A stretch of 64,000 bases of DNA from an archaeon (GTDB taxonomy: Archaea; Nanobdellota; Nanobdellia; Pacearchaeales; GW2011-AR1). A program made the translations under genes and the position numbers. Position 1 is the first letter of the stretch. Each line of letters starts with the position of its first letter. A model generated the notes under the pieces. It was not told where the DNA came from and ran no database searches. It worked only from the letters and a program-made list of their open reading frames with translations. The stretch covers positions 32,001 to 96,000 of the forward strand of contig JBDRNU010000025.1 in NCBI GenBank assembly GCA_043810775.1, in the 5' to 3' direction. Shown here piece by piece: positions 27,400 through 55,993 of the stretch.

Positions 27400-28134
27400 T
27401 TACTCGTAACCTAGTTTAGCAATATCAATAGGCATGCTGACATTTTTTCTCTCAAATCTAGCCCTGTAAGTTCCATCTCCGTTTTCAGTTAAAACTACAT
27501 CAGCGTAGTCTTCCATTCCGAAAACTCCGCCAATATCTTCGCAACTTGTAACTGGAGTTTTTCTACCAGTATTTACAGCAACTACTGCCATTGCTTCTAA
27601 AGAACCAGATTGTCCGCCTAAAACTGCTAGCTTTAAGTCAGGATTTTGAACTAGCTCGTAAATTACTTCTTTTAGCATTTGACCTCTGCTTTTACAGATT
27701 TCATTAAAAGGAGTTGTTTTTCCACCATGATATGAATTCATAGTTGGATTTGCAACTAAATCTCTTACGTAAGTGTCAGTGTCTACTTTTCCGCTTTTTA
27801 CAGCATCTTCATTGTATACAATTCCATCGTCCCCAAGTCTTTCATCTTCCATAAATGGTCTTTTTTCAACACCATTTTCAGAAGGGTCAATTCCTAGAGC
27901 ACCTAAATAAATAGCATTTGCAGTATGGGCAGTTCTATTTAATTTATTAGCTCTAAGTAAGACATTTTTTGGTCCAACTTGGTTTTGTTTGCAGTATCCA
28001 CCTAGAGTTTTTCTTGAAGTGTCATAGATTCTTTTAGAAGAATCCCACTGCACTGTATCTTCTATTGTTACTCCATTTGCGTCTTTAGGAACAATTCCGT
28101 GCCTTGATATTCTTATTCTTTTTTCTTTAATCAT
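27400..28134 (-). CDS. Divergent histidine phosphatase superfamily protein
   Basis: RISRHG, NRTAHTA and EDERLG; the second His motif is replaced by GGQS. Start at 28134 has an AAGGAG SD (track start is 28161). Confidence 0.6.
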   Translation of the reverse strand: MIKEKRIRISRHGIVPKDANGVTIEDTVQWDSSKRIYDTSRKTLGGYCKQNQVGPKNVLLRANKLNRTAHTANAIYLGALGIDPSENGVEKRPFMEDERLGDDGIVYNEDAVKSGKVDTDTYVRDLVANPTMNSYHGGKTTPFNEICKSRGQMLKEVIYELVQNPDLKLAVLGGQSGSLEAMAVVAVNTGRKTPVTSCEDIGGVFGMEDYADVVLTENGDGTYRARFERKNVSMPIDIAKLGYE

Positions 28135-28185
28135 TTTACTTCTCCTTAATTTATTTAACATAATAGAGTATTTAAATCTTTCTAT

Positions 28186-28211
28186 TTGTCACTATTATTT
28201 AATGGTGACAA
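28186..28211. promoter_or_regulatory. Inverted repeat (operator or terminator hairpin)
   Basis: TTGTCACTATTA-TT-TAATGGTGACAA immediately after the stop at 28212 and before the next TATA box. Confidence 0.4.
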
Positions 28212-29957
28212 TTACTTGTTTTTTCCTTTAATCTTTCTTACAGTGCCATGATTCATTCTTAGCTCGAGTTCATCTCCGTTTTTCAGTACTTTTGTGGCTA
28301 TTTTTGTGCCTATTATGCAAGGTTTATTCATTTCTCGAGAGACTATAGCTGCATGGCTTGTAATCCCCCCTATATCAGTTATTACTGCTCTTGCTTTTCT
28401 CATTAGTTGGACAAAATCTGGACGAGTCATTGGAGTAATTAGAATTTCATCTTCTGAAATTGTTTCTTTATAGGGATTTAAAATTACTTTAGCTTTTCCT
28501 AAAATAATTGGATTTTCACCTCTACAAGCTATGATTCCTTGGAAATTTTCTGTTTCAGAATGTGAATTTTCTTTTAAGAGTATATTTTTAATTGGAATTA
28601 CATCATTTCCTGTAAAAAAGCTAATCTTATTTTTATTTTGAGATACTATAAAAATACCTTCTCTTCTTTCATTCAGTATATTTATATCAAGGTTTTTTTC
28701 AAGTAAATCTGGGAGTTCACTTATTTTTGCGTAAGATGTTAGTTTTGGTTCTAGTCCTGTTCTTTTTCCAAATTCTTCAAAAAATCTGAACATATGATGC
28801 AGCATCATTAGAACTATCTTTTTTCTTTCGTCTTTTATCCATGTTACATTTTGAATGTGCTGTAGTTCTTGGTCTATTTCTGAAGGTATTTTAAATTGTT
28901 TTATTATATTATTTCTTTTTTCTTTAATTGCTTCTGTATCTTCAAGTTCATTAAGTTCTTTTTTTAAATCAGTTAGGGTAAATTCTTTTAGTGCTCCTTT
29001 TATAAATTCAGTGAATTCTATTATTGAGAGTATTGTCCATTGCCCATATGAATTCTGCACCCAATAATAATTTTGCTGATGCTCTTGTATTGCTCTGAAT
29101 ATTTCTGGATAATTCATTTTTAGTTCTGCTAGATAATCTGCATAAGGTAGATTTTTTATAAGATTTCTTTGACGAGGGCTTTGAAAGTATTTTAAAATTA
29201 ATCTTAGGAAGTCTCTTCTTTCTCTTGCTACAAATGATAATTCAAATGGAAGTGTTAGAGTTGCAAATGATTCTTTTGCTTTTTTTTCATCACCAATTAG
29301 CTTTGTAATTTTTGGCATGTAATAATCATCTAAATAATGATTATATGGTTCAACTACTAGGCCTACTTCCCAGAATTTTCCTAGAACTTTGTTAAATTTA
29401 TTAAATTCTTCAACTAGTGCTTCATTTGATAAAGAATCAATTTTAATGAATTCTAGTCTTTTTAGGAATTTTTCTGTTTTTTCATAAATCTCTTCATATT
29501 CTTTTAAGAAGATTTCAATTTTTTCTGGATCTTCTTTTACTGCTTTTATTTGCGCTTTACAGCTTTCTAGTGATTCTTGGATACTTAGAATTTGTTTCAT
29601 GTAGTCTTTTTCTGTGTAAAATATTGAGTGTGATAAGCAGGGTTTGAAGTATTTTTCAGTGTCTGACATTTTTAAGATTCCTATTTCAAGAGTTAAAGGA
29701 AGGCCTGGAGCTTCGTCTGTCCAGAATTTTTCTGTTTTTATATAATTCATAAACTGGTCTTTATTAATTTCTTCTATTTCTTGTTTTTTATTTAGGAATT
29801 TATCAAGGTCTTGTTTTTTATAACGTCTATCTCCACGATTACCTATTCTAATTGCTTTTAAAATTCCAGAATTATCCCAGTTTCTTAGGGTTATTTTACT
29901 AACTCCAAGTAGTTTAGCTGCTGAACTTATATCAATTAAATCTGTATTTTTAACCAT
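28212..29957 (-). CDS. MerR/Xis-like HTH + unknown domain + swivelling phospho-His (PEP-utilizer mobile) domain
   Basis: N-terminal AAKLLGVSKITLRNWDNSG...GDRRY; C-terminal MTRPDF...TDIGGITSHAAIVSRE..KPCIIGTKIAT. Confidence 0.85.
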   Translation of the reverse strand: MVKNTDLIDISSAAKLLGVSKITLRNWDNSGILKAIRIGNRGDRRYKKQDLDKFLNKKQEIEEINKDQFMNYIKTEKFWTDEAPGLPLTLEIGILKMSDTEKYFKPCLSHSIFYTEKDYMKQILSIQESLESCKAQIKAVKEDPEKIEIFLKEYEEIYEKTEKFLKRLEFIKIDSLSNEALVEEFNKFNKVLGKFWEVGLVVEPYNHYLDDYYMPKITKLIGDEKKAKESFATLTLPFELSFVARERRDFLRLILKYFQSPRQRNLIKNLPYADYLAELKMNYPEIFRAIQEHQQNYYWVQNSYGQWTILSIIEFTEFIKGALKEFTLTDLKKELNELEDTEAIKEKRNNIIKQFKIPSEIDQELQHIQNVTWIKDERKKIVLMMLHHMFRFFEEFGKRTGLEPKLTSYAKISELPDLLEKNLDINILNERREGIFIVSQNKNKISFFTGNDVIPIKNILLKENSHSETENFQGIIACRGENPIILGKAKVILNPYKETISEDEILITPMTRPDFVQLMRKARAVITDIGGITSHAAIVSREMNKPCIIGTKIATKVLKNGDELELRMNHGTVRKIKGKNK

Positions 29958-30035
29958 TTTTAGCTAATTTTGTATATTTAAGTTGATATATATTTATAAT
30001 TAATTATTTATAAATGTTTCGATTTATACGAACTT

Positions 30036-31364
30036 TTAAAGAATCTTTATTACACCAGTATTAGCATCTACTTCAACTTCTTGGCCGTCCTTTAAGACTT
30101 GTGTAGCTATTTTAGTTCCTATAATACAAGGCTTTCTTAGTTCACGAGCTACTATAGCAGCGTGGCAAGTAATTCCACCTTCATCTGTTATTATAGCAGA
30201 AGCTTTTTTACAAGCTGTTATGATATTTGGACGTGTCATTTCACTAACTAAGACGTCTCCTTCTTGCATATTTTTTATTTTTTCCAAGTGATTGTCAGCG
30301 TTTCTATAGGAAAGCACTATAACCTTACCTTTTACTTTTCCTTTGTTTGCTATAGCTCCTTTTAATTCTTTTAAATCTAATTTTACAGATAAACTTTCTT
30401 TAATCTCTTTAGCTTTATTTCCTTCAAGTATATTTATTTCATTATTTTTTAAAATAAATATTGAGCTTTCTTTTCTTTCCTGTAATATGCTTTTTTCAAT
30501 TTTCTTTCCTGTTTCAAGCATTTTAGCTATTTCTTGATAATTGCAAAGTCTAAGCTCTTCTTTTGATATCTTAAGCCTGGTTTTTATTTCTTCTAGGATC
30601 AATTCATTATAATATAGGGCTTGCATCCAGATAAGCCTCATTCTAAATCTTTGCTCAGTTATATTTCTTAAGATATCTGAAATTAATACAGCTTCTCCTG
30701 GAATTTCAGAATTTTGAATTAAGCTCATTCTTTCTTTTTGATCTGCATCCTCTTCTTTGAATAAGACTTTTTTATTAAGATTTTTGTCTATTTTAGCTTC
30801 TTCTGACTTAATTGATTCTGCAAATGATTTTAAGAAAGGATTATTTTTTTCATTAATGATGAATCTCTTTTTAGGAGTAGTCAAAGCAATTATTATTCCA
30901 TCTATATCTTTTATTCCTTGACTGGTTAATAAATCTCTTAATTTTTTTTCTATTTTACTTATATTATGTGGTTGAGTTGCAATGTAGCTTATAAAACACT
31001 CTTTTATTCCCCTTCCAAAAGTATCTAGTAAGTTACTTAACTCTTCATTGCTTATTTCTTTGAAATCTTGTTCAGCTAGTTTTTGCATTTGGGTCACTAT
31101 CGAACTGTAAGCAGTTTTTACTTCTTTTTCAAATTTCTTGAATTTAGTAGTACTTCTGAAAAATTCATATCCTTCATTTTCAGCTTTTTTAAGTTCTTCT
31201 TCTTGAACATAAAATTCAGCATTAAATCCATTACCCCATACTAGTGCTTGGCTTATTCCAAATCCAAATCTTTCTTTTAGTCTTGGACCGTAATTTAGCA
31301 AGATACCATTTAAGTCATAGTAATTCTGATTTTCATCTGCCCACATTAAAATATATTTATTCAT
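30036..31364 (-). CDS. Unknown domain + swivelling phospho-His domain
   Basis: C-terminal TDEGGITCHAAIVARELRKPCIIGT...VEVDANTG. Confidence 0.85.
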   Translation of the reverse strand: MNKYILMWADENQNYYDLNGILLNYGPRLKERFGFGISQALVWGNGFNAEFYVQEEELKKAENEGYEFFRSTTKFKKFEKEVKTAYSSIVTQMQKLAEQDFKEISNEELSNLLDTFGRGIKECFISYIATQPHNISKIEKKLRDLLTSQGIKDIDGIIIALTTPKKRFIINEKNNPFLKSFAESIKSEEAKIDKNLNKKVLFKEEDADQKERMSLIQNSEIPGEAVLISDILRNITEQRFRMRLIWMQALYYNELILEEIKTRLKISKEELRLCNYQEIAKMLETGKKIEKSILQERKESSIFILKNNEINILEGNKAKEIKESLSVKLDLKELKGAIANKGKVKGKVIVLSYRNADNHLEKIKNMQEGDVLVSEMTRPNIITACKKASAIITDEGGITCHAAIVARELRKPCIIGTKIATQVLKDGQEVEVDANTGVIKIL

Positions 31365-32112
31365 TTTGTCCTCTTTCTGTATATTCTCTGCATCTAGCTC
31401 TTACTTTATTATCGCTTTCTTGCACATATGCACTCCATTTTTCATAATTTAGATACTTCAGTCTTCTTATACCTGAATAAGCATCTGCCCAGATTCTTTC
31501 ACCCAATTTTCTTCCTTGAACTATAAGTTCGTGAGCTTCTTGATCTCTAGCTGCTTTATCTCCAGCACGGTATTCCCATCCATTCATTGAATAGTATCTT
31601 GCATCTGCAGGTTTAAGGTCTTCTGGAGTTTTTCCTTGTTTTTTAGGAATAACTACTCTATTTACAAAGTCATTAGGGACTTCTGTGTCATCCATATCTT
31701 TTCCATAAACTTTATGTGTGAATTTTGTTCCTTCAAGAACTGTTTTGTATTTTCTTCCTTTTCTTTGACCTGCTTGTTTTTGATATTCTCCAAGAATATG
31801 TGTGTCTACTGCATAAACTTTATCAGCTTGTCTTAATTTTTCTCTTGTTGAAGCTTTTCTACCAGTATTCCTAAGGGCCTCTATGTCTAAGTTATATCTA
31901 CCTATACTTTCTTCTAAAGCTTGAATATGCTTATCTTCAATAGGATGGTTTTCTTTATTTCCTATATAGTCTGGATGACCCATGCCTTCGGCTGTAATCT
32001 CTAATTCACCTAAATGTGCTAGTTCATCTATTCTAGTCTGAGCTATAGCAGCAAGAGTTGTCCCTCTCCTACCCCCATAACATCCGACCAGAGCTTTGTA
32101 TTTGTTTTTCAT
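31357..32112 (-). CDS. Divergent LMW-PTP/arsenate-reductase-fold protein
   Basis: ALVGCYGGRRGTTLA P-loop-like start, EITAEG, HPIED..IQAL and LRQADKVYAVD follow the LMW-PTP pattern, but the CX5R motif is non-canonical. Confidence 0.5.
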   Translation of the reverse strand: MKNKYKALVGCYGGRRGTTLAAIAQTRIDELAHLGELEITAEGMGHPDYIGNKENHPIEDKHIQALEESIGRYNLDIEALRNTGRKASTREKLRQADKVYAVDTHILGEYQKQAGQRKGRKYKTVLEGTKFTHKVYGKDMDDTEVPNDFVNRVVIPKKQGKTPEDLKPADARYYSMNGWEYRAGDKAARDQEAHELIVQGRKLGERIWADAYSGIRRLKYLNYEKWSAYVQESDNKVRARCREYTERGQNE

Positions 32113-32223
32113 TTTATTTTTATACCTCTTAATAATAGTAACATCTTTATATATTTAAAAGCTTTTCCTTGTTTTTTGTGAATTATAGGGAAAGTTTATA
32201 TAGTATTCCATATTTTAACAATT

Positions 32224-33204
32224 ATGATAGATATTGATGTAAAAGATAGGAAAATATTGTATTATCTTTCCCAAGATGGAAGAGCTAGTAATACTCATCT
32301 TTCAAAGAAAGTTGGGTTGAGTAAAAATGCTGTTGCATATAGAATTGAGAGACTGAAAAAATTAAAAGTTATAAAACACTTTGCTTCAATTGTAAATCTT
32401 GGAAGCTTAAATTTCACTACTTTTACTGTTTTGTTAAAGTTTAATGAGGATATATATGAAAATAGTTCTATTATTGAGTATTTTAAAAGCCATGATTATG
32501 TTGATTGGATGGTCAGCTTGTCTGGGCAGTGGGACCTTTTTATTGAGTTTGTTTCCAGGGATTTTAACCATTTGACTGAGATAATAGAGGAAATTATAAG
32601 TTATTTTAAAGATACGCTTGAAACTTATGAGTTATCTTATTCTAGGGTGACTTTAAGAGTTGAGCATCTTGTAAAGGATTTTTACCAGGACTTAAAACTC
32701 AGTCCTATTAAGACTAGTGAGAGAACTAAGCAGATCTTTAAGCTAGATAAGATTGATAAGCAGATACTAGAAGTTCTAAATAAAGATTCTTCTCTTCCTT
32801 ATCTTAGTATTGCTGAGAAATTAAAGACCAGTATTGATGTTGTGAGATATAGGATTAGTAATTTAGTTAGTAAAGGAGTGATAGTTAAATTTTTCCCAGA
32901 AATATCCCTTCCCAAGTTAGGTTATACTGAGTATTTGTATAGTTTAAGATTAAAGAACTTATCTTCTGAAAAATTTAGGGATATTCAGAATGATATAAAA
33001 AATAATAACAATATAACTTATGCGTTTGTAGATAGTGTTAGTTTAAGGATTATTTTTGTCTGTGCATTTAAATCTCCAGAAGCTATAGATCATTTATCCA
33101 GAGGCTTAAGAAAAAAGTATATGGGCAGTATAGATAAACAGGAGTATCTTATAATTAAGGAACAGATGCTGTTTAATTTATTTCCCAGGGGATTAACTAA
33201 ATAA
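32224..33204 (+). CDS. Tandem-duplicated Lrp/AsnC-family regulator
   Basis: Two Lrp HTHs: DVKDRKILYYLSQDGR...YRIERL and LDKIDKQILEVLNKDS...YRISNL. Confidence 0.88.
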   Translation: MIDIDVKDRKILYYLSQDGRASNTHLSKKVGLSKNAVAYRIERLKKLKVIKHFASIVNLGSLNFTTFTVLLKFNEDIYENSSIIEYFKSHDYVDWMVSLSGQWDLFIEFVSRDFNHLTEIIEEIISYFKDTLETYELSYSRVTLRVEHLVKDFYQDLKLSPIKTSERTKQIFKLDKIDKQILEVLNKDSSLPYLSIAEKLKTSIDVVRYRISNLVSKGVIVKFFPEISLPKLGYTEYLYSLRLKNLSSEKFRDIQNDIKNNNNITYAFVDSVSLRIIFVCAFKSPEAIDHLSRGLRKKYMGSIDKQEYLIIKEQMLFNLFPRGLTK

Positions 33205-34932
33205 TTATTTTATGACTTTTATTAGCCCGTGATGCATTCTTATTTCAATTTCTTGACCTGATTGAAGAACTTTTGTAGCATTTTTAGTGCCTATAATGCA
33301 TGGTTTGTTCATTTCTCTTGAAACTATAGCTGCATGACAAGTTATTCCACCTTCATCTGTAATTACTGCTCTTGCTTTTCTCATTAGTGGGACGAAATCA
33401 GGACGAGTCATACTAGTAACTAGTATTTCATCTTCTGAAATTGTTTCTTTGTTAGGGTTGAGAATTACTTTTACTTTCCCCCGTATAATTGGTTCGCTGC
33501 CCCTACATGCGACGTTTCCCTCTATTTCATATACAGTCTTAGTCTCAATATTTTTTGAGACTAGTTTTTTAAATTCTAGAAATTCATTTCCTACTAGTAT
33601 GCTGAATTTGTTTGGTTTTTGAGATATAAACGAGCAGCCATTACGCCTTTGCTGTAAAGTGGAAATTGGCATTGAATTTTGGAGTATAAGGGGGATTTCT
33701 TCTGTTTTTGCATATCCTATTAGTTTTTCATTAATTCCTGTTCTTCTTGCAAATTCTTCTATAAATCCGTGTATATTATGTAGATATATTAAAATAACTC
33801 TTTTTCTATCATCTTTAATCCATGTAATATTTTTTATATATTCTAACTCCTTTACTACTTTTTCAGGGATTTTTAATTCTTTAATTAGCTCTTCTTGTTC
33901 TTTTTTAAGAGCATCAAAATTTGTTATTTTGTCTAGTTCTTGTCTAGCTTGTTCAATTGTAGATTCTTTTATAGAGTCCCTTAAAATATTCAGAAAATCA
34001 GTTACTTGCAAAATTGTTCTATCTAGATAATTGTTTTGAACCCAAAAAAATTCTCTTTGGTGTTTTAAAAGAGCTTCAAAGAATTTGGGTTCGTTAATTT
34101 TTATATATGTTAAGAAATCTTCGTTTGAATCATTCATAATTTTTTTTCTTTTTTTATTATTGTTTAGATATTTTATAATCATATTTAGAAGGCTTTTTCT
34201 TTCTTCAGCTGTGAATGAGGACTTTGTTGGAAGAGTCAGCAATGAAAAAGCATGTCTTGCTTTTTTCTTGTCACTTGCTTTTTTCTCAAAATCTAGGTAA
34301 TAAAGGTCTGTAAATGGGTCGTGTGATTCAACAAGTAAATTAATATTCCAAAATTCAATTAAAGGCTTGTTAAATAAATTAAATTCTTTTAATAGTTCTT
34401 CTGTTGAAAGTTCTTTGAGTCTAATAAATTCTAAACGAGTCATTGCTGTTTCAAATTTTTTAGATCGCTTAGCCCATTCTTTAAAGAAATTTTCTATTTT
34501 TTTTGGATTTTTATTTACTGCTTCAAACTGGGCCCTACAATTTTCAATAGATTCTGATAAACTTAAAGATTGGATTATAAAATCATTTTCTGATAAATGT
34601 GGGTAGAAGGTTACTCCTGGTTTAAACCAATTTTCCATTTTAGCGCCCTCTTTAATTCCTAGTTCTGCTGTAATAGGGAGTCCTGGAAGTTCTTGAAACC
34701 AGAAATCATTGTGTTTTACCCAGTTCCAGAAGAATTCTTTGTCAATTTCTGGACATTTTTCCTTATTTAAAAGCTTGTTTATATCCTCTTTTTTATAACG
34801 TCTATCTCCACGATTACCTATTCTTACTGCTTTTAAAGTCCCAGAATTATCCCAGTTTCTAAGGGTTTTCTTACTAATCCCTAGCTGTTCTGCAGCTGTA
34901 TTTATTCCAACTAATTCTTCATTTTTAGCCAT
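33205..34932 (-). CDS. MerR/Xis-like HTH + unknown domain + swivelling phospho-His domain (close paralog of 28212-29957)
   Basis: AAEQLGISKKTLRNWDNSG...GDRRY; TDEGGITCHAAIVSRE. Confidence 0.85.
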   Translation of the reverse strand: MAKNEELVGINTAAEQLGISKKTLRNWDNSGTLKAVRIGNRGDRRYKKEDINKLLNKEKCPEIDKEFFWNWVKHNDFWFQELPGLPITAELGIKEGAKMENWFKPGVTFYPHLSENDFIIQSLSLSESIENCRAQFEAVNKNPKKIENFFKEWAKRSKKFETAMTRLEFIRLKELSTEELLKEFNLFNKPLIEFWNINLLVESHDPFTDLYYLDFEKKASDKKKARHAFSLLTLPTKSSFTAEERKSLLNMIIKYLNNNKKRKKIMNDSNEDFLTYIKINEPKFFEALLKHQREFFWVQNNYLDRTILQVTDFLNILRDSIKESTIEQARQELDKITNFDALKKEQEELIKELKIPEKVVKELEYIKNITWIKDDRKRVILIYLHNIHGFIEEFARRTGINEKLIGYAKTEEIPLILQNSMPISTLQQRRNGCSFISQKPNKFSILVGNEFLEFKKLVSKNIETKTVYEIEGNVACRGSEPIIRGKVKVILNPNKETISEDEILVTSMTRPDFVPLMRKARAVITDEGGITCHAAIVSREMNKPCIIGTKNATKVLQSGQEIEIRMHHGLIKVIK

Positions 34933-35024
34933 TTTTTAATAATTTTAGCTTTTTTAGTTGGAATTAGTTGACCTTTGCATTTATAAATGTTTCGGTTAAA
35001 GGGTATTTAAAAAGAAGTTAGGGA

Positions 35025-36686: not shown

Positions 36687-36741
36687 TTTAACTTGTTATA
36701 AGTTATTATAAGTATATATAAATCTTTTGGTTAAAGGGTAT

Positions 36742-37338: not shown

Positions 37339-37375
37339 AAATTTTAAATAGATTTAGATTATTTAAGTTTTTCGA

Positions 37376-42454: not shown

Positions 42455-42455
42455 T

Positions 42456-45400
42456 TTATTTAGCTTTCTTTTTAGATAGGACTTTTACTACACCAATATC
42501 TGCATCTACTTCCACAACTTCTCCTTCACCCAAAATATCTGTTGCATTTACTGTTCCTACTATTGTTGGTTTTTTTAGTTTCTCAGCAACAATTGCAGCA
42601 TGACAGCTTCTTACTATTCCTTCATCAGCGTCAACTTCAACTCTTTTTCCTTCTTGCAAAAATTCTGTTGCTATTTTAGTGCCTATTATTGTAGGTTTTT
42701 TAAGCTCACGGGCTACTATAGCTGCATGGCAGGTAATTCCCCCTTCATCTGTTACAATTCCTCCTGCCAGTTTCATGGCTGGTACGTATCTTGGATCAGT
42801 CATACTTGTAACTAGAATATCTCCTTTTTCAATTTTTTTTGCATCTTCTATTTTTCTTATAATTCTGACTCTTCCTATAGCTTTTCCTTTATATGCTGAG
42901 ACGCCTTTAATTTCTTGGTTTTCTTTTTTTTCATTAAGTTCATCCCATAAAGATTCTTTGTAAAATATTTCTTGACCTTTCGAGGTATATTTTATGATGC
43001 AAAATTTTTTTCTTTTTTCAATATCTGGAATTTTCTTGGTTTTAAGGAATTCTTCAAATTCATCTATTGTGAGGTATTTTAAAGAGCCTTTTTTAGTATT
43101 GTACTTTTTTTCAAGTTTTGTTAGTATTTTTTCCTCGATTATGAAACTTCTTTTATGCACATCTTCATATGCTCTTCTTATTTCTAGGGCTATATCATTA
43201 ATTTCTTTTGGAATATCTTCTCCATAGTACATTGGAACTTCATATCCTGAAAGAATAACATTTGTAAAGTCAACAAATGTTTTGTAGAGTTTTACTGCTG
43301 CTTTTTCTGGGTTTTTGTAGCTATCTTTGTAAAATTTGTTAAATTCAGTGAGTTTTTTGTCATATTGCTTTTTTATTTTTCTAAAATCCTCTAAAGTATT
43401 TCTTTGGATAAGGCTTTTACTTCTTTTTCTTCCATCTTCTTTTGATGTATAGTGGTAGAGGATGTCATCTCTCATTGTTATATAACATGGACTTGATCCT
43501 ACTCCAAAAAATTCCTTATTTTCATTAAATAAACCTTTAAAGACACAAGTTGTTCCTAAAATAGAATAGTCTCTTTGATGTCTGTCATAATCAAGAGACT
43601 TGTCAAATTCTAAAAGAGTTGTTTTTTTATCATGTCTGTGCTGGCTTTTTTCTAATATTATTACTTGGGCGTGATTTGCTTTTACTTCAACTAAATCCCT
43701 GTCTTTAAGGATTTTTGTTCCAACTTTTGTGCCAATTATACAAGGTATTCCAAGTTCACGAGAGACAATTGCAGCATGGCAAGTCATTCCTCCTTCATCT
43801 GTAACTATTGCTGATGCTCGTTTCATAGCTGGAAGATATTCTGGGCGAGTCATTCCAGTTACAAGTATCTTCCCTTGTTCAAAGTTCTTAATGTCCTCTA
43901 GTGTTTTGCAGATTGAAACCTCCCCTATTGCCTGTCCTGTAGATGCACATGTTCCACTTATTGTTGTTGACTCGATAATTTTTTCTTGATCTGAAATTTT
44001 CTCATATATTTCTTTTGCTTTATCCCCGCTAAAAATTATTATATTATTTGGAAGAGAGGGATTCATAATCCATATGAACATTTCTTCTCTATTTTTGATT
44101 TCTTTCTGAAATTCTTTATCTAAAAACTTCTTGCTTTCAATTTCCCGAGGCATTAGATAATAGAGTTTTTTAACAGGAATTTTATATTTTTCTGCTATTT
44201 TGTGCAAGACTTTATCATGCTCGCATACAGCTTTCATAATATTTTCTTTTCTTTCATCTTGCCAGAGTGTACAAAATGAGAGAAGATTAGCAAGATTTTG
44301 AGTTTTTCGATCTATATTGTATTTTTTAATTATTTGTTTTTTTGCAACTCTTATTTTAATAAAGTGATCTTTTGGTAGCAATTTAATTGAATCTTTTTGC
44401 TCAAGTAGCTCCTTTATTGTTAGAGGATCAGTTCCAGCATAACTGCTTTTAATCCATTCAAATTTTTCAAGGTGTTTTTCAAGAAGTTTTTTTTGCTTAT
44501 TCTTATCTTTAGATTTAAATGCTTTTAATAGACTTTCATCATGGCGATTGTTAAATGATTCTTCTTCTGGCATGGTTAATACATTTAACGCTTCATTAAG
44601 CTGTTTTAAATCTTTTATTTTTTTATCAAGCAAATGTTTTAATACATGGCTTTGAGTTAAGGAAAATGCTTCAATTACATGACCTGTTCCTACTCCATAA
44701 CCAATTAGGTCAAAAGTTATCTTAAATACCTCTAACAATTCTTTCTCTGAATAATCTGTTTTAGCTTTTGATTTTAGCTTGTTGTATTGCTTTGAAAATT
44801 GGTTGCTGTAGATTATTCTGGTTTTTTGAAAATATTTTTCATCTTTTTTTAATTTATTAAGTATAATCTCTCCAACTCTCTCTAAGTCAGATTTTATGTA
44901 AGACATGTCCCCAAAGTCTTTTTCTGACTTGAACATAAATTTCTCATAGCTATATCCTAAAGGATCCTTCATTTTATCTGTTGAGTCTACAGCTGCATTA
45001 AAGAATACTGGATATGCAGAGCCTTGTTGAGTTATTCTCTCTTCTTTTAGTATTTTTTCGATAATTTCGCTACTTGGGTTCTGGTCATTAAGTATTTTTA
45101 CTATACCTTTATCTGCATCCACTTCGACTTCCTGGCCGTCTTTAAGTACCTTTGTAGCTATATTAGTGCCAATTATACAGGGTTTTTTTAGCTCACGAGA
45201 AATAATAGCTGCATGACATAAAATTCCCCCCATATCTGTTATAATAGCAGCTGCTTTTTTCATCAATGGAACATAATTTGGATCTGTCATACTACACACA
45301 AGAATCTCCCCTTCTTTAAATTTTAAAAAGTCATGACTTCCAAGCACTATTTTAATATTTCCTTTAACAACTCCTTTATAGGTTGGTGTGCCTGTGAAAT

Positions 45401-47459
45401 CTTTTGTTTCTTTTAGTATGGTATCAAGATAATCCTTTTTTAGCTTGTCTAAATCTTTTTTGCATAATAAATAGTTATTATTTATAGAAATCATAGCCAC
45501 ATCATTTCCTAGACAAGAATCTTCTAAAGTGAGTTTCTTTCTTTCCAATAACTTATAAAATTGATCAAGTGGCAGAGATAACAATTTTTCGTAAGATATT
45601 TTATTCGCTGATGCAATTTTTTTAAAAACAGGTTTTAAATTGTATACTGCTTTGTTAGTCACTTCATTATTAAGAATTCTTCCTACTGAAAAGATGTTTA
45701 GGATTTTAATTAATTCATTTAATTTTTTATCTTTAAAATTATGTTTTTCAAATCCTCTTTTTTCATTATCTGCTCTCTTAATCTGTTCTAGAATATCTTG
45801 TTTAGTGTAACCTTCTCCAGATAGAAAGTATTGGTTTAAATAACTGTATTCTTCAATCACTTTATCTATATCTTTTGAACTAAATTTTCCTTTTTCTCTT
45901 AATCTTGCTATTTCAGTCTCAAGTTTAAATGCATCTGATTCTTCATCTTTATCTAATAATTCTGGCACTGTAATTTGTTTTATTTTTAGTTCATCAAATC
46001 TTTTCAATATTGATTCTTCAAGATAATTACTCATATCCCTTAATATTTCAAATACAACAAGAATTGTTAATACTTTCTCTAGGATATTTGATACTGATTT
46101 TTCATTATAGTTTTTCTTTTTAGATATTTCCCCTATTTCTTTCTCAAGTTCTTTTCTGAATTTCTCTTGATTTTTATTAAAATTATAAATAAAACTAAAG
46201 TCTCCTGAATCTATTCTTCCAACTACTTTTTTTTCAATTATTTCAAGTTCTTTTTCTGCGACGTAAACATCATAACCTGCTGATAAATATTTAATAGGAG
46301 GAATATCTTGAATTCCATATTTTTTTAAATAAAATCTAGATTGTGAACTATTGAATATATCAAACATTAATCTTGGAACTCTCCAACTACCTACTTTTTT
46401 CCAATTATCTTTTTTGTATTTATCAATAAATTCTTTGTATGAAATTTGTTCACTTTCTTTAAATGGAGTTTCAGAATAAGTCACTTCATCTTTTTTTTTA
46501 GGCTCTTCCTCTTCTAAGGAAGTTAGAGTAGTAATTGGGCGAGATTGAGTTATGTATAGCTTACCTTTTTCCATTGCCCATTCAACATCTACTGGGAATC
46601 CATAATGGTTTTCTATCTTAGCTATTAGTTTTGAAAGTTCAATTATTTCTTTATCTGTTAAAATCTGTTTGTTTCCTTCTTCTCCTAGCTCTCGCCACTC
46701 ATTTCCCCCACCCTTTACTCTGAATAAACCTCTTGATTGTTCTGAGATATTTTTATCAATAATATGCCAGTCCTGCTTGTCTATAACATAGCTATCTGGA
46801 GTTATCTGGCCTGAGACTATTGCTTCTCCTAAGCCTAGACCTGCTTCAATTATTAGCTGGTTTCTGTCTTGAGTTACAGGATGAACTGAGAATGCTATTC
46901 CAGATTCTTCACTAGCAACCATTTTTTGAACTACTACTGCTACTGATATTTTTTGATTGTGGAGTTTTTGCTCAAATCTATAGAATATTGCTCTTGGAGT
47001 GAAAAGTGAGGCCCAGCATTTTTTTACGTTTTCAAGCAAGCTGGATTTTGTAGTGTTTAGATAAGATTCAAGCTGGCCTGCCCAGGCTGCTGAAGCTGAA
47101 TCTTCTGCAGTTGCGCTGGAACGGACTGCTACATATTCTGCACCTAGTTTTTTAAATTCTACTAGAATCTCGGTTTCAATATCTTTAGGCATTTCTGCAT
47201 TAAGAATTAGAGCTTTTATTGTTTCTGAAGCTTCTTCTGATGTATGCACTTCTTCTGTATTGACAGTGTCCATGGCTGCGTCAATTTCTGTTATGAGATC
47301 CGCTTCTTCAATGAATTTTTCAAAAGCATCTGATAATATAACAAATCCTTCTGGAACAGGAATTCCTGCCTGAGTCATTTCACCTAAACTAGCTCCCTTA
47401 CCACCAGCTATATTTGCATCATTTTTACTAATTTTGGAAAAATTGAGTGTAAATTGCAT
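42456..47459 (-). CDS. PPDK/PEPS-type ATP-grasp domain + three (unknown domain-phospho-His) modules + partial fourth His module
   Basis: GGKGASLGEM, VAVRSSATAED, AGQLESYLN, VVVQKMV, GLGEAIVSGQITPD and DVEWA..QSRPIT; His codons at 45213, 43776, 42726 and 42600; no C-terminal pyruvate-binding barrel. Confidence 0.9.
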   Translation of the reverse strand: MQFTLNFSKISKNDANIAGGKGASLGEMTQAGIPVPEGFVILSDAFEKFIEEADLITEIDAAMDTVNTEEVHTSEEASETIKALILNAEMPKDIETEILVEFKKLGAEYVAVRSSATAEDSASAAWAGQLESYLNTTKSSLLENVKKCWASLFTPRAIFYRFEQKLHNQKISVAVVVQKMVASEESGIAFSVHPVTQDRNQLIIEAGLGLGEAIVSGQITPDSYVIDKQDWHIIDKNISEQSRGLFRVKGGGNEWRELGEEGNKQILTDKEIIELSKLIAKIENHYGFPVDVEWAMEKGKLYITQSRPITTLTSLEEEEPKKKDEVTYSETPFKESEQISYKEFIDKYKKDNWKKVGSWRVPRLMFDIFNSSQSRFYLKKYGIQDIPPIKYLSAGYDVYVAEKELEIIEKKVVGRIDSGDFSFIYNFNKNQEKFRKELEKEIGEISKKKNYNEKSVSNILEKVLTILVVFEILRDMSNYLEESILKRFDELKIKQITVPELLDKDEESDAFKLETEIARLREKGKFSSKDIDKVIEEYSYLNQYFLSGEGYTKQDILEQIKRADNEKRGFEKHNFKDKKLNELIKILNIFSVGRILNNEVTNKAVYNLKPVFKKIASANKISYEKLLSLPLDQFYKLLERKKLTLEDSCLGNDVAMISINNNYLLCKKDLDKLKKDYLDTILKETKDFTGTPTYKGVVKGNIKIVLGSHDFLKFKEGEILVCSMTDPNYVPLMKKAAAIITDMGGILCHAAIISRELKKPCIIGTNIATKVLKDGQEVEVDADKGIVKILNDQNPSSEIIEKILKEERITQQGSAYPVFFNAAVDSTDKMKDPLGYSYEKFMFKSEKDFGDMSYIKSDLERVGEIILNKLKKDEKYFQKTRIIYSNQFSKQYNKLKSKAKTDYSEKELLEVFKITFDLIGYGVGTGHVIEAFSLTQSHVLKHLLDKKIKDLKQLNEALNVLTMPEEESFNNRHDESLLKAFKSKDKNKQKKLLEKHLEKFEWIKSSYAGTDPLTIKELLEQKDSIKLLPKDHFIKIRVAKKQIIKKYNIDRKTQNLANLLSFCTLWQDERKENIMKAVCEHDKVLHKIAEKYKIPVKKLYYLMPREIESKKFLDKEFQKEIKNREEMFIWIMNPSLPNNIIIFSGDKAKEIYEKISDQEKIIESTTISGTCASTGQAIGEVSICKTLEDIKNFEQGKILVTGMTRPEYLPAMKRASAIVTDEGGMTCHAAIVSRELGIPCIIGTKVGTKILKDRDLVEVKANHAQVIILEKSQHRHDKKTTLLEFDKSLDYDRHQRDYSILGTTCVFKGLFNENKEFFGVGSSPCYITMRDDILYHYTSKEDGRKRSKSLIQRNTLEDFRKIKKQYDKKLTEFNKFYKDSYKNPEKAAVKLYKTFVDFTNVILSGYEVPMYYGEDIPKEINDIALEIRRAYEDVHKRSFIIEEKILTKLEKKYNTKKGSLKYLTIDEFEEFLKTKKIPDIEKRKKFCIIKYTSKGQEIFYKESLWDELNEKKENQEIKGVSAYKGKAIGRVRIIRKIEDAKKIEKGDILVTSMTDPRYVPAMKLAGGIVTDEGGITCHAAIVARELKKPTIIGTKIATEFLQEGKRVEVDADEGIVRSCHAAIVAEKLKKPTIVGTVNATDILGEGEVVEVDADIGVVKVLSKKKAK

Positions 47460-47499
47460 ATAGGAATAATGAAAAAAGGCATTAAATAGCTTTCGTTAA

Positions 47500-47578
47500 A
47501 TGAATGCTCCTGCCAGCTCGCTTTCCCACTCGTTATTTAATTAATAAGATTGCCTCGTGAAAAAGCTCGGGATTCGAA
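47500..47578 (-). repeat. Interrupted copy of the tRNA-Glu 3' end
   Basis: 47500-47514 equals 47647-47661 (15/15) and 47568-47578 equals 47661-47671 (11/11), separated by a 54-nt hairpin-forming insert. Confidence 0.7.
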
Positions 47579-47651
47579 ACCATCACTTTCAAAATACTCT
47601 CCCCAAAACCAGTAAGGGTCATATAGGATTTCGCAAGCTTAATCCTATGAA

Positions 47652-47724
47652 TGCTCCTGCCGGGATTCGAACCCGGATTTCAAGCGCGAGAGGCTCGCGT
47701 CCTTAGCCGTTAGACTACAGGAGC
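47652..47724 (-). tRNA. tRNA-Glu(CTC)
   Basis: GCTCCTG...CGAGC-CTCTCGC-GCTTG...GGTTCGAATCCCGGCAGGAGCA cloverleaf; no encoded CCA and no intron. Confidence 0.95.
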
Positions 47725-47756
47725 TTTCTAAAATATAGAAAAAATGGTTTTTAAAA

Positions 47757-48011
47757 TTATGCTACTAAAAATACTTTGTCATTTGGGCGCACTTTATCAG
47801 GGACTTTTATTCCAATGTGGTCTCCTTTTTTTGCTTTTTGCACGTCTTTTCTTTCAATTTGCATGCTGTCTACTCCAATTTCAAAGTCAGTTGTATTTCC
47901 CTTGATATGGACTTTATCCCCTACTTTTAAGCCCGCCTTAAGCTTTATTGCAGCTACGCCTACATGACTAAAGTATGTTGAAATTTCTCCAATTTCTTTT
48001 TCTTTTGCCAT
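47757..48011 (-). CDS. Small EF-Tu-domain-II-like beta-barrel protein ('translation elongation factor-like')
   Basis: YFSHVGVAAIKL..LKVGDKVHIKG..VDSMQIE..A.KGD.IGIKV..KVRPND. Confidence 0.75.
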   Translation of the reverse strand: MAKEKEIGEISTYFSHVGVAAIKLKAGLKVGDKVHIKGNTTDFEIGVDSMQIERKDVQKAKKGDHIGIKVPDKVRPNDKVFLVA

Positions 48012-48137
48012 ATTTTATTAAAGAATAAGGTATATTTAAGCTTAGCGTACTAAGAAGTTTATTATTTCTTTAATTTATGTTACTAAGAAGTAGTTACAAT
48101 TAGGAAGGTTTATATACTCTTAAAACTGCTAAATTTT

Positions 48138-49181
48138 ATGGTAAATATAGAGGATATAAAGGATGTTTTAAGAGGGGAATTAGGCGAAGATATAGAGATA
48201 ACTGGATTTCAAAAAATAGGAGAAGGATATCATTCAGACGGATTTAAAATTTCTACAAATAAAGGAGAATTTTTTCTTAAAAAAGTAAAATCAGAAGACC
48301 TTGGTTTTGAGCTTCCAGAAAGAAAGATTTACTCTTTATTAGTAAGTGATGGAATGCAAAAAAGAGCAAAATCTAGTCCCAAGGCTGTAGGAGTTTTTAT
48401 TTCTAATAATGGAAAAATTTCAAAGATTCCTAGAATAGACAATCAAACAGAAATTTTTCATATTCAAGAATTTGGCGGGAATGGAAAAAACTATTGGGAT
48501 ATTTTACAAGAAAAAAAATACAAAAAACAAATAGATAAAAAAGATATTGAAGAAATTGAAAAACTTACTGATTTTATTAGTAAAATACATTTAATAAAAT
48601 ACCCTTCTAATGATAAAAAAAAGCTTAATGCAGTTTATAATGACTGTTTAAGAAATACCATAATCAATCCTGAATTAACTATGGTCTTACTGCAAGATTT
48701 TCCAAATGATCATGTTGTTTTTCCTCTTGAAGCTCAGAAAAAATATCTTGCTTTAATGTATGATTTAATTACCAGATTTAAAGACAGATCAGAAAGGTTG
48801 AATGCTCTTCATGGGGATTTTTGGGGGAGTAACTGTATTTTTAATGAGCAGGGAGAGTTATGGGTAATTGATTATTCTAGAATGCCTTGGGGAGATCCGG
48901 GAATTGATATTGGATGGTTTATTTGCCAGTATTTATGGCTTTATCATGAAACTAAGAATGATTATTTTAAAGAGTTGGGAGAATTATTTTTAAAAAAGTA
49001 TGAAGAAAAAACAGAAGATAAGCAAATAAGAGAAGGAATAAGCTTAATAGTTGGTTTTCAGGGAATTGTTTATCTTTTTCCTAAATTTTATCCAGATAGA
49101 GATAAAAAAACAAGTGAAAGATTTTTGCAAAATATAATTGATATCATGAAAGAGGGGAGGTTCAAATGGAATCAAATTTAA
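48138..49181 (+). CDS. APH/choline-kinase-like small-molecule phosphotransferase
   Basis: KIGEGYHS glycine loop, FFLKK, LHGDFWGSN (Brenner motif), VIDYS and GDPGIDIG. Confidence 0.85.
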   Translation: MVNIEDIKDVLRGELGEDIEITGFQKIGEGYHSDGFKISTNKGEFFLKKVKSEDLGFELPERKIYSLLVSDGMQKRAKSSPKAVGVFISNNGKISKIPRIDNQTEIFHIQEFGGNGKNYWDILQEKKYKKQIDKKDIEEIEKLTDFISKIHLIKYPSNDKKKLNAVYNDCLRNTIINPELTMVLLQDFPNDHVVFPLEAQKKYLALMYDLITRFKDRSERLNALHGDFWGSNCIFNEQGELWVIDYSRMPWGDPGIDIGWFICQYLWLYHETKNDYFKELGELFLKKYEEKTEDKQIREGISLIVGFQGIVYLFPKFYPDRDKKTSERFLQNIIDIMKEGRFKWNQI

Positions 49182-49867
49182 AGTTAGAAGAGGCTGATGG
49201 TGTTTTAGTTAGGCATGGGGAGGCTAAATATGAGCAGGGAATTGTAAGTAGCTTAGGATTAGCTTATGACTTGACTTTTAATGGTTCTATAAAAGTGATG
49301 TTAGAGGCATATAACTTTTATAAAAGATTAGGAGAAGCAAAAAAGCCCTTTAAAGTATTTTATTCAGATTATGGGAGGACTGCAGAAACTGCCAGAATAT
49401 GGAGAGACACTGCCAGAATTGAAGGTAAAGTACCTATTGGAGAAATGTTTTCTAGAAAAGGATTAAGAGAGGTTGAGAATTTTGATTTAGCTTTGACTTT
49501 AGCTTTGGTTAATGGAGGGGAATATGTCTTAAATGGAAAGAAGGTTATGATTAATAAGGAAAAAACTAATCCTTTTGATTTAGATATTGGAGATTTTTGG
49601 ATTTCTGGAGCTTATTTAAGACTTCCAGATGACTTGCCTGAAGCAATTATTGGGAAGATGAGAATTTTGGAAAGTTATGAAGCAGTTAATACTAGATTTA
49701 ATAGAGAGATTCAAGAATTAAGAGGACTATCTAAAGATTCAAGAGTTATTGTAGTAACTCATTTAGGTTTAATTGATAAATTAGCAAAAAAAGCAGGAAT
49801 TTCTGAAACTTTGGGCTCTGGAGATTATTTACCATTTAAATGGGGAGAAAGGGATTTAATTGTTTAA
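49166..49867 (+). CDS. Histidine phosphatase superfamily protein
   Basis: VLVRHGE, YSDYGRTAETA, LRE and IVVTHLG; overlaps the kinase gene. Confidence 0.8.
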   Translation: MESNLKLEEADGVLVRHGEAKYEQGIVSSLGLAYDLTFNGSIKVMLEAYNFYKRLGEAKKPFKVFYSDYGRTAETARIWRDTARIEGKVPIGEMFSRKGLREVENFDLALTLALVNGGEYVLNGKKVMINKEKTNPFDLDIGDFWISGAYLRLPDDLPEAIIGKMRILESYEAVNTRFNREIQELRGLSKDSRVIVVTHLGLIDKLAKKAGISETLGSGDYLPFKWGERDLIV

Positions 49868-49868
49868 G

Positions 49869-49999: not shown

Positions 50000-50129
50000 G
50001 TCCTGTACCATCGTGACCATTTCTTGGGATGTTATTTATCAATGTTTCGGCAGTATGATGTCTTGAATCTGGCTTTATTTATAAATCTTGTCGAGAAGGA
50101 GTATATGGATAGATTTATTTCTTAGGATA

Positions 50130-50846: not shown

Positions 50847-50873
50847 AATATTAAAGTGTTTATAAATCTTACT

Positions 50874-55991: not shown

Positions 55992-55993
55992 TT

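Follow-up and report, generated by a model that had tools for sequence, protein, structure and literature searches.

An array of RPH-like acceptor modules and phospho-histidine swivels with one ATP-grasp domain in a Pacearchaeales genome

Dikinases of the rifampin phosphotransferase (RPH) type have so far been met as single enzymes, which inactivate antibiotics or condense pigments, or as 1:1 pairs in phenol catabolism. In the two-component dikinases HpeHI, PpsAB (phenylphosphate synthase) and CreHI, one subunit is the ATP-grasp and another holds the acceptor domain and the phospho-histidine swivel; phosphate moves from ATP to the histidine and from there to a phenolic acceptor (PMC12167813). 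Here we describe a locus in which parts of this kind are combined one to many. It lies in a stretch of 64,000 nucleotides (the window; contig JBDRNU010000025.1, positions 32,001 to 96,000, assembly GCA_043810775.1) from an archaeon of the lineage Pacearchaeales, and consists of nine genes that encode eleven modules, each an acceptor domain followed by a swivel, together with one ATP-grasp domain. The chemistry of such proteins is known; their organisation, their scale in the smallest genomes and their spread through bacteria of the candidate phyla radiation (CPR) and DPANN archaea were unexpected. A preliminary description, made from the sequence of the window alone, had called the array a candidate new system. 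This was overstated, the array being a one-to-many elaboration of the known RPH and HpeHI/PpsAB/CreHI dikinases. The feature itself is real, ordered and under constraint.

Twelve co-oriented open reading frames (ORFs) occupy the minus strand at 27400-47459, and one regulator gene on the plus strand breaks the row. Pfam finds PF00391 (PEP-utilizers; PEP, phosphoenolpyruvate) in all nine module genes at 28212-47459, at the C-terminus in eight of them and in four stretches in the gene of a 1667-residue protein. A regular expression for GGxx[CS]HA[AS]I..RE detects 11 intact motifs, one in each of the eight genes and three in the 1667-residue protein, so that both searches agree with the nine genes and 11 histidine motifs initially counted. 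The catalytic swivel His and its flanking motif are thus kept in 11/11 window modules, and in the DNA the swivels form a repeat of 230 nt, present in 11 copies that are 60-71% identical. PF01326 (ATP-grasp) occurs in the array solely in the 1667-residue protein (residues 16-324, E 2.2e-97) and PF02896 (the PEP/pyruvate barrel) in none of the 15 proteins of the region, both as originally read; the Pfam content that had been expected was recovered, save that a half copy of PF00391 accompanies the 11 intact ones. The first five genes (47459 to 37376) meet at junctions of +1, -4, -4 and -4 nt, which bears out their translational coupling. All nine module genes are open, including an ORF of 5004 nt, in DNA of about 30% G+C. 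ATP-grasp, acceptor domain and swivel stand in one chain only in residues 1-790 of gene 42456-47459, where the grasp is fused to the first module and not encoded as a separate subunit; the other eight genes are acceptor plus swivel without ATP-grasp. Our own hidden Markov models (HMMs) map the 1667-residue protein as grasp (1-323), middle domain (338-711), swivel (713-790), middle domain (792-1189), swivel (1191-1269), middle domain (1284-1540), swivel (1541-1619) and a last partial swivel (1619-1661). Its parts and the eight other module genes follow, all on the minus strand, with the residues found at the phosphotransfer positions discussed below.

42456-47459, minus: 1667-residue protein, ATP-grasp plus three acceptor-plus-swivel modules plus half swivel (PF01326, PF00391)
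46488-47459, minus: ATP-grasp (PPDK_N), residues 1-324, proposed charger
45324-46487, minus: acceptor domain of module 1 (M1), residues 325-712, phosphotransfer positions degenerate
45090-45323, minus: swivel 1, His748, motif GGILCHAAIISRE at residue 744; own HMM 713-790
43890-45089, minus: acceptor domain of module 2 (M2), residues 791-1190, DRK intact
43653-43889, minus: swivel 2, His1227
42840-43652, minus: acceptor domain of module 3 (M3), short type, residues 1270-1540, motif ERR
42606-42839, minus: swivel 3, His1577
42477-42605, minus: half swivel, residues 1619-1661
41387-42454, minus: stand-alone short-type module, 355 residues, motif IRK, 1 nt past the stop of the 1667-residue gene
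40338-41390, minus: stand-alone short-type module, 350 residues, motif ANK, 4-nt overlap
38803-40341, minus: stand-alone module, 512 residues, motif DKK, structure modelled
37376-38806, minus: stand-alone module, 476 residues, motif DRK
35025-36686, minus: MerR/HTH_17 domain plus acceptor plus swivel, 553 residues, motif DRK
33205-34932, minus: MerR/HTH_17 domain plus acceptor plus swivel, 575 residues, motif DRK
30036-31364, minus: stand-alone module, 442 residues, motif -RM
28212-29957, minus: MerR/HTH_17 domain plus acceptor plus swivel, 581 residues, motif DRK

The half swivel is a diverged duplicate of the third swivel's final ~43 residues, without the GG and with AEK at the place of ARE in the others. 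In Pfam and in the genome search it covers positions 34-72 of the PF00391 model; its junction is crossed by exact-match contigs of two public groundwater runs. Three groundwater-metagenome DNA runs of two studies contain parts of the stretch, and no RNA run is among the runs listed. The exact-match contigs are 150-505 nt long and of low depth, none of them spanning the array, and joints with sides of 20-24 nt in such contigs are regarded as cross-matches of paralogous swivels or other organisms.

Each swivel had been thought to sit behind a different domain of 240-410 residues. The middle domains measure about 270-440 residues and turn out to be divergent paralogs of one domain with a shared fold. 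All-versus-all BLASTP joins all 11, with many pairs between 1e-5 and 1e-17; 33205/28212 is the closest pair (E 7e-125), 38803/28212 reaches E 8e-17 and M2/38803 E 5e-9, and the links of M1 are the weakest. The domains can be aligned throughout, the short types (M3, 41387 and 40338) being without about 130-150 central residues. Over the 55 pairs of window modules the swivels are on average 54% identical (43-78) and the acceptor domains 19.7% (12-39), a pattern expected if the swivels dock to one partner while the acceptor sites diverge.

The fold was assigned with an AlphaFold2 model of gene 38803 (512 residues, alignment of 105 homologs), which has a pLDDT of 94.9 and a pTM of 0.92. Six RPH-Lm entries lead the Foldseek matches (E 9e-14 to 1.5e-10), the outcome that had been anticipated for the middle domains, with TMq 0.55-0.61 for 5fbu, 5fbt, 5hv1 and 5fbs and 0.37-0.43 for the G527Y-mutant entries; every non-RPH match covers the swivel only, at TMq 0.20 or less. 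VIA-align places residues 7-509 of the model on residues 327-867 of the 5fbt chain (Z 21.3, root-mean-square deviation 4.7 Å, 438 residues), that is, on the rifampin-binding domain and the swivel in the same mutual arrangement, and the acceptor domain alone aligns with 5hv2 at Z 13.0 over 326 residues. The remaining 10 acceptor domains were placed in the RPH fold by sequence homology to gene 38803. A profile of the 105 sequences (A2) finds RPH at E 4.7e-36. An acceptor-domain profile (A1) searched against PDB sequences gave no RPH match and a chance match at E 0.22, and the link to RPH is therefore drawn from the longer profile and the fold. NCBIfam profiles of RPH, PigC and PRK06241 reach about 400 residues upstream of the swivel with scores far below the family cut-offs: the 1667-residue protein attains 489.8 bits against a cut-off of 999 for NF041857 and 341.9 against 1700 for NF000283, and the stand-alone modules at most 81 bits against these two rifamycin-inactivating phosphotransferase equivalogs. 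A look-up in the Atlas leads to structural neighbours with the Pfam family 'Rph_4th' and to the CPR/DPANN taxa of the matches given below. Fold and profile alignments together uphold the RPH/PigC-like layout first proposed. On the strength of the model, the middle domains are predicted to be acceptor-binding domains of the RPH type and not the cryptic ATP- or pyruvate-binding folds that had been considered as the alternative.

Residues at the presumptive active sites were compared in an alignment of 315 modules, made up of the window, other genomes and database hits. The swivel His is present in 315/315. A D-x-R-K motif of the acceptor domain is conserved at 72, 88 and 83%, the Arg equivalent to R367 of gene 38803 at 92%, and [DE][RK][RK] is intact in 232 of the 315 modules. 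The family's 'D-e-R-K' aligns with 'R-E-Y-P-K' of RPH, where the acidic residue and the Lys coincide and the Arg stands three positions later; counting residues ourselves from chain residue 593, where the alignment begins, we equate 'R-E-Y-P-K' with Arg666, Glu667 and the nearby Lys. This block of RPH-Lm is reported to be essential for the second phosphotransfer and conserved even in distant clades (PMC4844700). In the window [DE][RK][RK] is intact in 7/11 modules, partial in three (IRK, -RM, ANK) and absent in M1.

Seven window modules have a best outside match in BLAST that is not the window itself, and six of these score higher in bits against the outside protein than against any paralog of the array. 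The best outside match of three other modules is a database copy of the window itself, and that of 41387 a database copy of its paralog 30036. Outside identities are 58% for 35025 (module 2 of P0013), 56% for 33205 (P0018), 48% for both 38803 and M3, 44% for M2 (P0057, 479 residues) and 39% for M1. The exception is 28212, with 45% to the outside and 47% to paralog 33205 (whole module; 41% in the middle domain). Because six of the seven informative modules are closer to outside proteins than to each other, the window paralogs appear from these comparisons to be mostly old and maintained. Decay of the array is unlikely.

In the grasp domain, K21 and R113 are invariant in 13/13 aligned sequences. 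The array grasp shares 45% identity with the corresponding domain of the PEP synthase encoded in this genome and 65% with the grasp of a fused homolog; a grasp-domain tree, in which 10 of 23 inner branches are unresolved, gave no 'array grasp' clade apart from the genome's PEP synthase. A complex prediction of ATP-grasp residues 1-330 with gene 38803, run without controls, scored 0.01 and carries no weight on the question of binding. The genome (about 1 Mb in 26 contigs, 80% complete) encodes related proteins elsewhere. A canonical PEP synthase ORF of 866 residues on contig C7 holds the sole PF02896 of the genome. On contig C22 (25135-26637, minus strand) an ORF of 500 residues has a weak PPDK_N match (95 bits), a C-terminus like a degenerate swivel (GIHALTIANE) and a very long branch in the grasp tree; its product is possibly a further phosphotransfer enzyme or could serve as a loader in place of the array grasp. 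A lone acceptor-plus-swivel gene of about 490 residues, motif GGIMCHAAIISRE, lies away from the array on contig C3 (72612-74126, plus strand). A TrmB-like gene is found about 3.7 kb downstream of it.

An exhaustive profile search with the middle domains returned 7135 cluster representatives with E-values up to 0.001, of which 990 lie at or below 1e-30; a word-based search with one acceptor domain gave 6 matches, which marks its limit of sensitivity. The best 150 of the 7135 (including four window copies) and five from the word-based search form a set of 155 proteins, 100 of which are single acceptor plus swivel, 25 double and five triple; six have a helix-turn-helix (HTH) domain, and 14 combine an ATP-grasp with one to four modules. 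Full-length matches come from metagenome-assembled genomes (MAGs) of the CPR (Nealsonbacteria, Moraniibacteriota, Falkowbacteria, Uhrbacteria, Buchananbacteria, 'Patescibacteria group') and of DPANN (Woesearchaeota, Micrarchaeota, Nanoarchaeia), the names of a few automatically labelled MAGs among them being doubtful. Larger arrays consist of 11 genes in 20 kb or of 10 genes including a three-module protein, and on a contig of Nealsonbacteria eight swivels lie within 13.4 kb. Giant relatives include a 2815-residue protein with six middle domains, a 4201-residue protein with eight modules and a C-terminal ATP-grasp, a Woesearchaeota protein of 3761 residues made of a grasp and 8 modules, and a fusion of grasp and 4 modules of 1994 residues. 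Stand-alone grasp genes of the relatives lie in or near arrays (302-360 residues), as does one of 314 residues inside an array and those that adjoin modules in Falkowbacteria and Buchananbacteria. The survey of copy number that had been suggested thus finds arrays recurring in DPANN and CPR genomes, and beside those that are common in CPR bacteria and in other lineages of its class, the array of the window is a modest example.

In a phylum sample of 401 genomes the middle domain occurs in 76 and 10 or more swivel matches in 26; a swivel count of 14 in this survey means at least 14, and six flagged unpublished genomes, none of them array-rich, are included in the tallies. Full swivel counts (PF00391) in five array-rich genomes are 17, 21, 23, 38 and 46. 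Each of the five has one long PPDK_N ORF of 778-943 residues, which we took for PEP synthase, the 778-residue ORF of G340 grouping with stand-alone grasps, and one short stand-alone grasp ORF of 304-360 residues, in 3/5 located in or beside an array; additional weak PPDK_N matches, 1-3 per genome, occur in four of the five. PPDK_N matches never exceed 3 per genome in the 401-genome sample, and genomes with two or three of them are distributed as follows (cross-tabulated by hand; related genomes are not independent, so these are counts only).

10 or more swivels: 21 of 26 genomes with 2-3 PPDK_N matches
5-9 swivels: 18 of 19 genomes
fewer than 5 swivels: 41 of 356 genomes

The proposal of one charger for many acceptors gains from this comparison of genomes, in which few grasps face many modules and the two are repeatedly fused; the word 'single' was too strict. 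Literature searches on arrays or expansions of these proteins in DPANN and CPR, and the main texts of DPANN genomics papers and of the HpeHI paper, yielded no account of such an array, in keeping with what had been supposed; the layout is apparently undescribed. In several genomes (for example G442:C3, G406:C2, G316:C37, G127:C10, G230:C9) the PPDK_N matches with the best E-values fall in ORFs of about 1200-1230 residues, which could represent PEP synthases that carry an insertion, perhaps an intein, or fusions of grasp and module.

Genes beside the arrays of other genomes were scanned in 19 stretches (L013-L029) from 17 other genomes, with 107 non-module ORFs. A tandem hexapeptide O-acetyltransferase recurs in 9/19 stretches, a protein of ~360 residues without Pfam or NCBIfam match in 8/19, a phosphotransacetylase in 7/19 (292 bits against a cut-off of 310), S-adenosylmethionine-dependent (SAM) methyltransferases, HAD phosphatases and a protein of ~270 residues without Pfam or NCBIfam match in 3/19 each, and pyridoxal-phosphate-dependent (PLP) enzymes and metallo-beta-lactamase-fold proteins in 2/19 each; AMP-binding enzymes are found as well. 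That these partners are small-molecule enzymes speaks for acceptors that are small molecules as well. In or beside arrays there are also phosphatases, of three different folds. The isochorismatase-like hydrolase of the window has a homolog (E 7.8e-67) inside another array (L017, 16026-16619), and its tandem AsnC regulator has one beside the array in L024; a TrmB regulator is also common to other arrays. The aRF1 (eRF1-family) gene beside the array in L017 (122-1687, G340:C1) holds an intein (Pfam Intein_splicing/Hint, about residues 181-334), and aRF1 also adjoins the arrays in L013 and L029.

Within the window the following genes and elements are interspersed with the modules or end the block.

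36742-37338, minus: isochorismatase-family hydrolase within the array (PF00857, E 4e-44)
32224-33204, plus: tandem AsnC/Lrp-type HTH regulator (PF13404/PF13412, two stretches each)
31357-32112, minus: LMW-PTP-fold protein, 251 residues
27400-28161, minus: orphan ORF, 253 residues, end of the co-oriented block
34951-35009, 36686-36744 and 30006-30043, minus: conserved upstream element of the HTH-type genes

The AsnC/Lrp-type regulator gene divides the array into two blocks, and its product resembles the HTHs of CARF/CasR in PADLOC. No PADLOC defence-system model fits the modules, their HTH alone resembling 'mad1'. The orphan ORF has no match in Pfam, NCBIfam or PADLOC, and a word search of 5.8 billion proteins returns itself alone. 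Three module genes (28212, 33205 and 35025) carry MerR/HTH_17 domains at about residues 5-58, with Pfam scores of 38-39 bits for PF12728 (cut-off 27) and 29-33 bits for PF13411 (cut-off 21.6). Upstream of the HTH-type genes lies a 12-bp palindrome, CATTTATAAATG, over a TATA-like box; this element corresponds to the direct-repeat families D13 and D19, with 75-76% identity, and is a candidate promoter or operator. Conservation of the elements suggests that these genes are separate, perhaps autoregulated, transcription units.

Gene 31357 overlaps the start of gene 30036 with its stop by 8 nt. Its product has no Pfam match, PF01451 included at E 0.01 or better. In a model with a pLDDT of 81.5, built from 5 sequences, the listed Foldseek PDB matches are all of the low-molecular-weight protein tyrosine phosphatase (LMW-PTP) family or LMW-PTP-like (2cwd, E 2e-5; YwlE 4etn, TMt 0.74), and its structural neighbours in the Atlas carry PF01451. 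A loop C11-Y-G-G-R-R-G-(T/A)-T is kept in 5/5 homologs, T19 being invariant, and so is D141-D142-T143-E144 (DDTE). The nearest Arg of the loop is at C+5, as against C+6 in what we take to be the signature of the LMW-PTP phosphate-binding loop, C-X5-R-(S/T). The preliminary description had passed over the three MerR/HTH_17 domains, the half swivel, the LMW-PTP-fold gene, the isochorismatase-family hydrolase, the orphan ORF and the degenerate acceptor site of M1, and likewise the two further PPDK_N genes (C7, C22) and the further middle-domain-plus-swivel gene (C3).

The reading that we favour, and hold to be moderately probable, is a split small-molecule dikinase system of multiple specificity, in which a common ATP-grasp serves many swivels, both on its own chain and on other proteins. 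All 11 modules pair an RPH-like domain for acceptor binding with a phospho-histidine swivel behind it. The PEP-synthase-type ATP-grasp would bind ATP and pass its beta-phosphate to the histidines of the swivels, acting in cis on the three that share its polypeptide and in trans on the eight stand-alone proteins. A charged swivel would then swing to its own acceptor domain and phosphorylate the small molecule bound there, the products being AMP, phosphate and the phospho-product. Charging in trans, small-molecule acceptors and specificities particular to each module are what we infer here. The specificities are expected to differ because the acceptor domains are only about 20% identical and the swivels about 54%; for a shared loader, the main support is comparative, namely the repeated fusion of a grasp to many modules and the low number of grasps; charging in trans has its precedent in HpeHI, PpsAB and CreHI, where the grasp subunit loads the His of the other subunit (PMC12167813). 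In the HTH-bearing members, phosphorylation or the binding of a ligand is probably linked to transcription from the conserved promoters of these same genes, and the LMW-PTP-fold protein, the isochorismatase-like hydrolase and the nearby phosphatases probably reset or process phospho-intermediates. Detoxification or capture of diverse hydroxylated compounds by an organism of very small genome is the likeliest physiological role, though in itself doubtful and the weakest part of this reading. We think it unlikely, though worth stating, that ultra-small CPR and DPANN organisms share a platform of one loader and dozens of interchangeable modules, which diversifies rapidly, traps or neutralises a broad spectrum of small molecules of hosts or neighbours and in the giant proteins relays phosphate from swivel to swivel; such a platform, by our estimate up to about 4% of a 1.5-Mb genome, would on this same unlikely view be a small-molecule counterpart of the phosphotransferase system (PTS) or an innate chemical defence, and a source of untapped regiospecific kinases.

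Several observations weigh against a system of many specificities fed by one charger. M1, the very module that is fused to the ATP-grasp, reads I-x-N-N at the D-x-R-K positions and K at R363, and the first modules of nine other grasp-fused homologs keep [DE][RK]K; three further window modules have the partial motifs IRK, -RM and ANK. To judge from these residues, at least M1 may phosphorylate nothing and either act purely as a carrier or be a relic. A 'single charger' is not strict, since other possible chargers are encoded on C7 and C22, and 5/26 array-rich genomes have one PPDK_N match. The window is without all of the recurrent partners counted above in the 19 stretches, so its context is atypical, and the other genomes sampled from its family, 63 in number (36 and 27 in two surveys), have at most 3 swivels each.

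Other explanations start from the same proteins. The array could be a signalling device or phosphorelay, with swivels passing phosphate from His to His or to an LMW-PTP/PTS-IIB-like Cys, acceptor domains acting as ligand sensors and the HTH domains giving the output; to phosphorylate small molecules in bulk would then not be its purpose. Three members with MerR/HTH_17 and a common palindrome-bearing upstream element would fit, as would M1, where the His is kept and the acceptor-site motif is gone, in the way expected of a pure carrier, and an LMW-PTP-fold protein with an invariant Cys loop whose gene is translationally coupled to one module; HpeH alone can move phosphate between substrates (PMC12167813). 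We nevertheless consider a relay quite improbable: 8/11 window modules and 100/155 database proteins are plain acceptor plus swivel and HTH occurs in 6/155, the phosphotransfer motif shared with RPH, intact in 232/315 modules, would be needless in a pure sensor, and the recurrent partners are small-molecule enzymes and not signalling proteins. We give similarly little credence to tailoring or condensing in the manner of PigC, RedH and HapC, where phosphorylation would ready a carbonyl or hydroxyl for bond formation and the modules, above all the multi-module giants, would build or decorate a natural product or surface molecule. PigC/RedH profiles do fit about as well as those of RPH (residues 188-506 of 38803 align with 545-880 of PigC at E 3.8e-23), the megaproteins of 4-8 modules recall assembly lines, and acetyltransferases, methyltransferases, PLP-dependent and AMP-binding enzymes beside arrays elsewhere resemble a biosynthetic cluster. 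The PigC/RedH scores are 81-90 bits, however, against cut-offs of 1300-1350, and the window is without such tailoring genes, save the hydrolase and the phosphatases; module number and order vary widely between genomes, unlike a fixed pathway, and no scaffold-forming enzyme (polyketide synthase, nonribosomal peptide synthetase or terpene enzyme) is among the 107 neighbours scanned.

The modules might, on the other hand, be real phosphotransferases with another charger, be it the PEP synthase, the C22 grasp protein or a different donor, for instance PEP, acetyl phosphate or some phospho-metabolite. Two other PPDK_N proteins are encoded in the genome, the array grasp is 45% identical to that of PEP synthase and is not separated from it in the tree, 5/26 array-rich genomes show one PPDK_N match only, phosphotransacetylase as a source of acetyl phosphate is found in 7/19 stretches elsewhere, and HpeH transfers phosphate between acceptors without HpeI (PMC12167813). 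Set against this are the grasp domains repeatedly fused to or embedded among modules, and the extra grasp in 39/45 genomes with 5 or more swivels as compared with 41/356 others; a simpler account of the phosphotransacetylase is that it works with the acetyl-CoA-dependent acetyltransferases encoded next to it. The chance of a different charger seems to us slim. Decaying or selfish duplicates without present function would account for the half swivel, for one degenerate acceptor site and three partial motifs, for the orphan ORF at the block end and for an array not found in 63 other sampled genomes of the same family. Such decay, named at the outset as what would undo the proposal, is extremely improbable in the face of nine open genes, His motifs in 11/11, six of seven informative modules closer to outside proteins, an alignment that yields a model of pLDDT 94.9, and a layout that recurs across two domains of life. 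We accordingly keep to the split dikinase with a shared ATP-grasp as the preferred reading.

The array's upstream edge and the genes next to it are the following.

47652-47724, minus: tRNA-Glu, upstream edge of the array
48138-49181, plus: APH-like kinase, divergently transcribed (PF01636/PF03881)
49166-49867, plus: histidine-phosphatase-superfamily protein, divergently transcribed (PF00300)

The kinase/phosphatase pair at 48138-49867 is possibly accessory to the array; its membership is doubtful because it is kept in a same-genus genome without demonstrable array. That genome (L124; G001:C24:1-8551) is syntenic with window positions 47660-57868, from archaeal-type phenylalanyl-tRNA synthetase (PheRS) to tRNA-Glu, and is without the window's 49.9-53.6 kb segment with TrmB and HEPN/nucleotidyltransferase genes. 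The 8.5-kb contig stops just past tRNA-Glu, where the array of the window begins, so that the array region is not covered; a Dus query found no match in it. Other window genes, for RFC subunits, TrmB, TYW2 and the archaeal-type PheRS, show that the organism is an archaeon of very small genome. Two giant ORFs, one of 2524 residues with subtilase S8, CARDB and FG-GAP domains (16672-24246, plus) and one of more than 2000 residues with beta-helix and LamG-like domains (57986-64000, plus, open end), are probably surface proteins. Toxin-antitoxin-like genes surround the array: a MazF/PemK toxin (26078-26431, plus), a HEPN and nucleotidyltransferase pair (51858-52888, minus) and an HTH-nucleotidyltransferase (1408-1926, minus). 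A mix of toxin-antitoxin genes is typical of variable genome regions. Two NUDIX hydrolase genes lie just upstream of the block (24227-25816) and a MazG gene at 55994-56350; with the APH-like kinase and the His-phosphatase they make a neighbourhood rich in enzymes of phospho-metabolites.

A set of 20-45 paralogs is a striking investment for organisms with some of the smallest cellular genomes. If charging in trans is true, it would account for thousands of 'PEP synthase' and 'PEP-utilising enzyme mobile domain protein' labels, would point to unrecognised physiology of CPR/DPANN symbionts, be it chemical defence, metabolite capture or regulation, and would offer a natural library of ATP-driven small-molecule kinases with a common loader. 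The labels call for caution in any case: nine of the ten PF00391 genes examined in this genome are not PEP synthases, and an eleventh is the PEP synthase itself.

Judged by its sequence, the array is not an RPH equivalog, not a PEP synthase and not a 1:1 catabolic pair. RPH-Lm (5fbs/5fbt/5fbu, 5hv1-3; PMC4844700) has the same order of ATP-grasp, helical acceptor domain and His swivel as window residues 1-790. In contrast to RPH, 10/11 window modules are without an ATP-grasp of their own, three are of the short type, identity to RPH is 15-17% and the host is an archaeon; rifamycins are not indicated as substrates. PigC, RedH and HapC (NCBIfam NF052631, NF052632) belong to the same three-domain family, and their profiles align to the window's acceptor and swivel; they are single-chain condensers of pigment clusters, and the window scores reach 4-35% of their cut-offs. 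With PEP synthase and pyruvate phosphate dikinase (PPDK) the array shares homologous ATP-grasp and swivel domains: PRK06464 PEP synthase is the best NCBIfam match of the 1667-residue protein, and the window swivels match the PEP synthase structure 8a8e at E 1e-31. It differs from them in being without the PF02896 TIM-barrel, the canonical PEP synthase being separate on C7. Like HpeHI, PpsAB and CreHI, relatives of the array have a stand-alone grasp of about 310 residues beside the modules. Those systems, from free-living bacteria, pair the two subunits 1:1 within operons for aromatic catabolism, whereas the window has one grasp to 11 modules, and arrays elsewhere one to about 45; the window also differs in its grasp fusion, its head-to-tail modules, its HTH members and the absence of downstream catabolic genes. 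From Enzyme I and HPr of the PTS it is set apart by an ATP-grasp as donor, by the absence of HPr- or PEP-binding domains and by having no linked transporters; what it has in common with them is a swivel His that carries phosphate, and the flow from one to many is a conceptual parallel.

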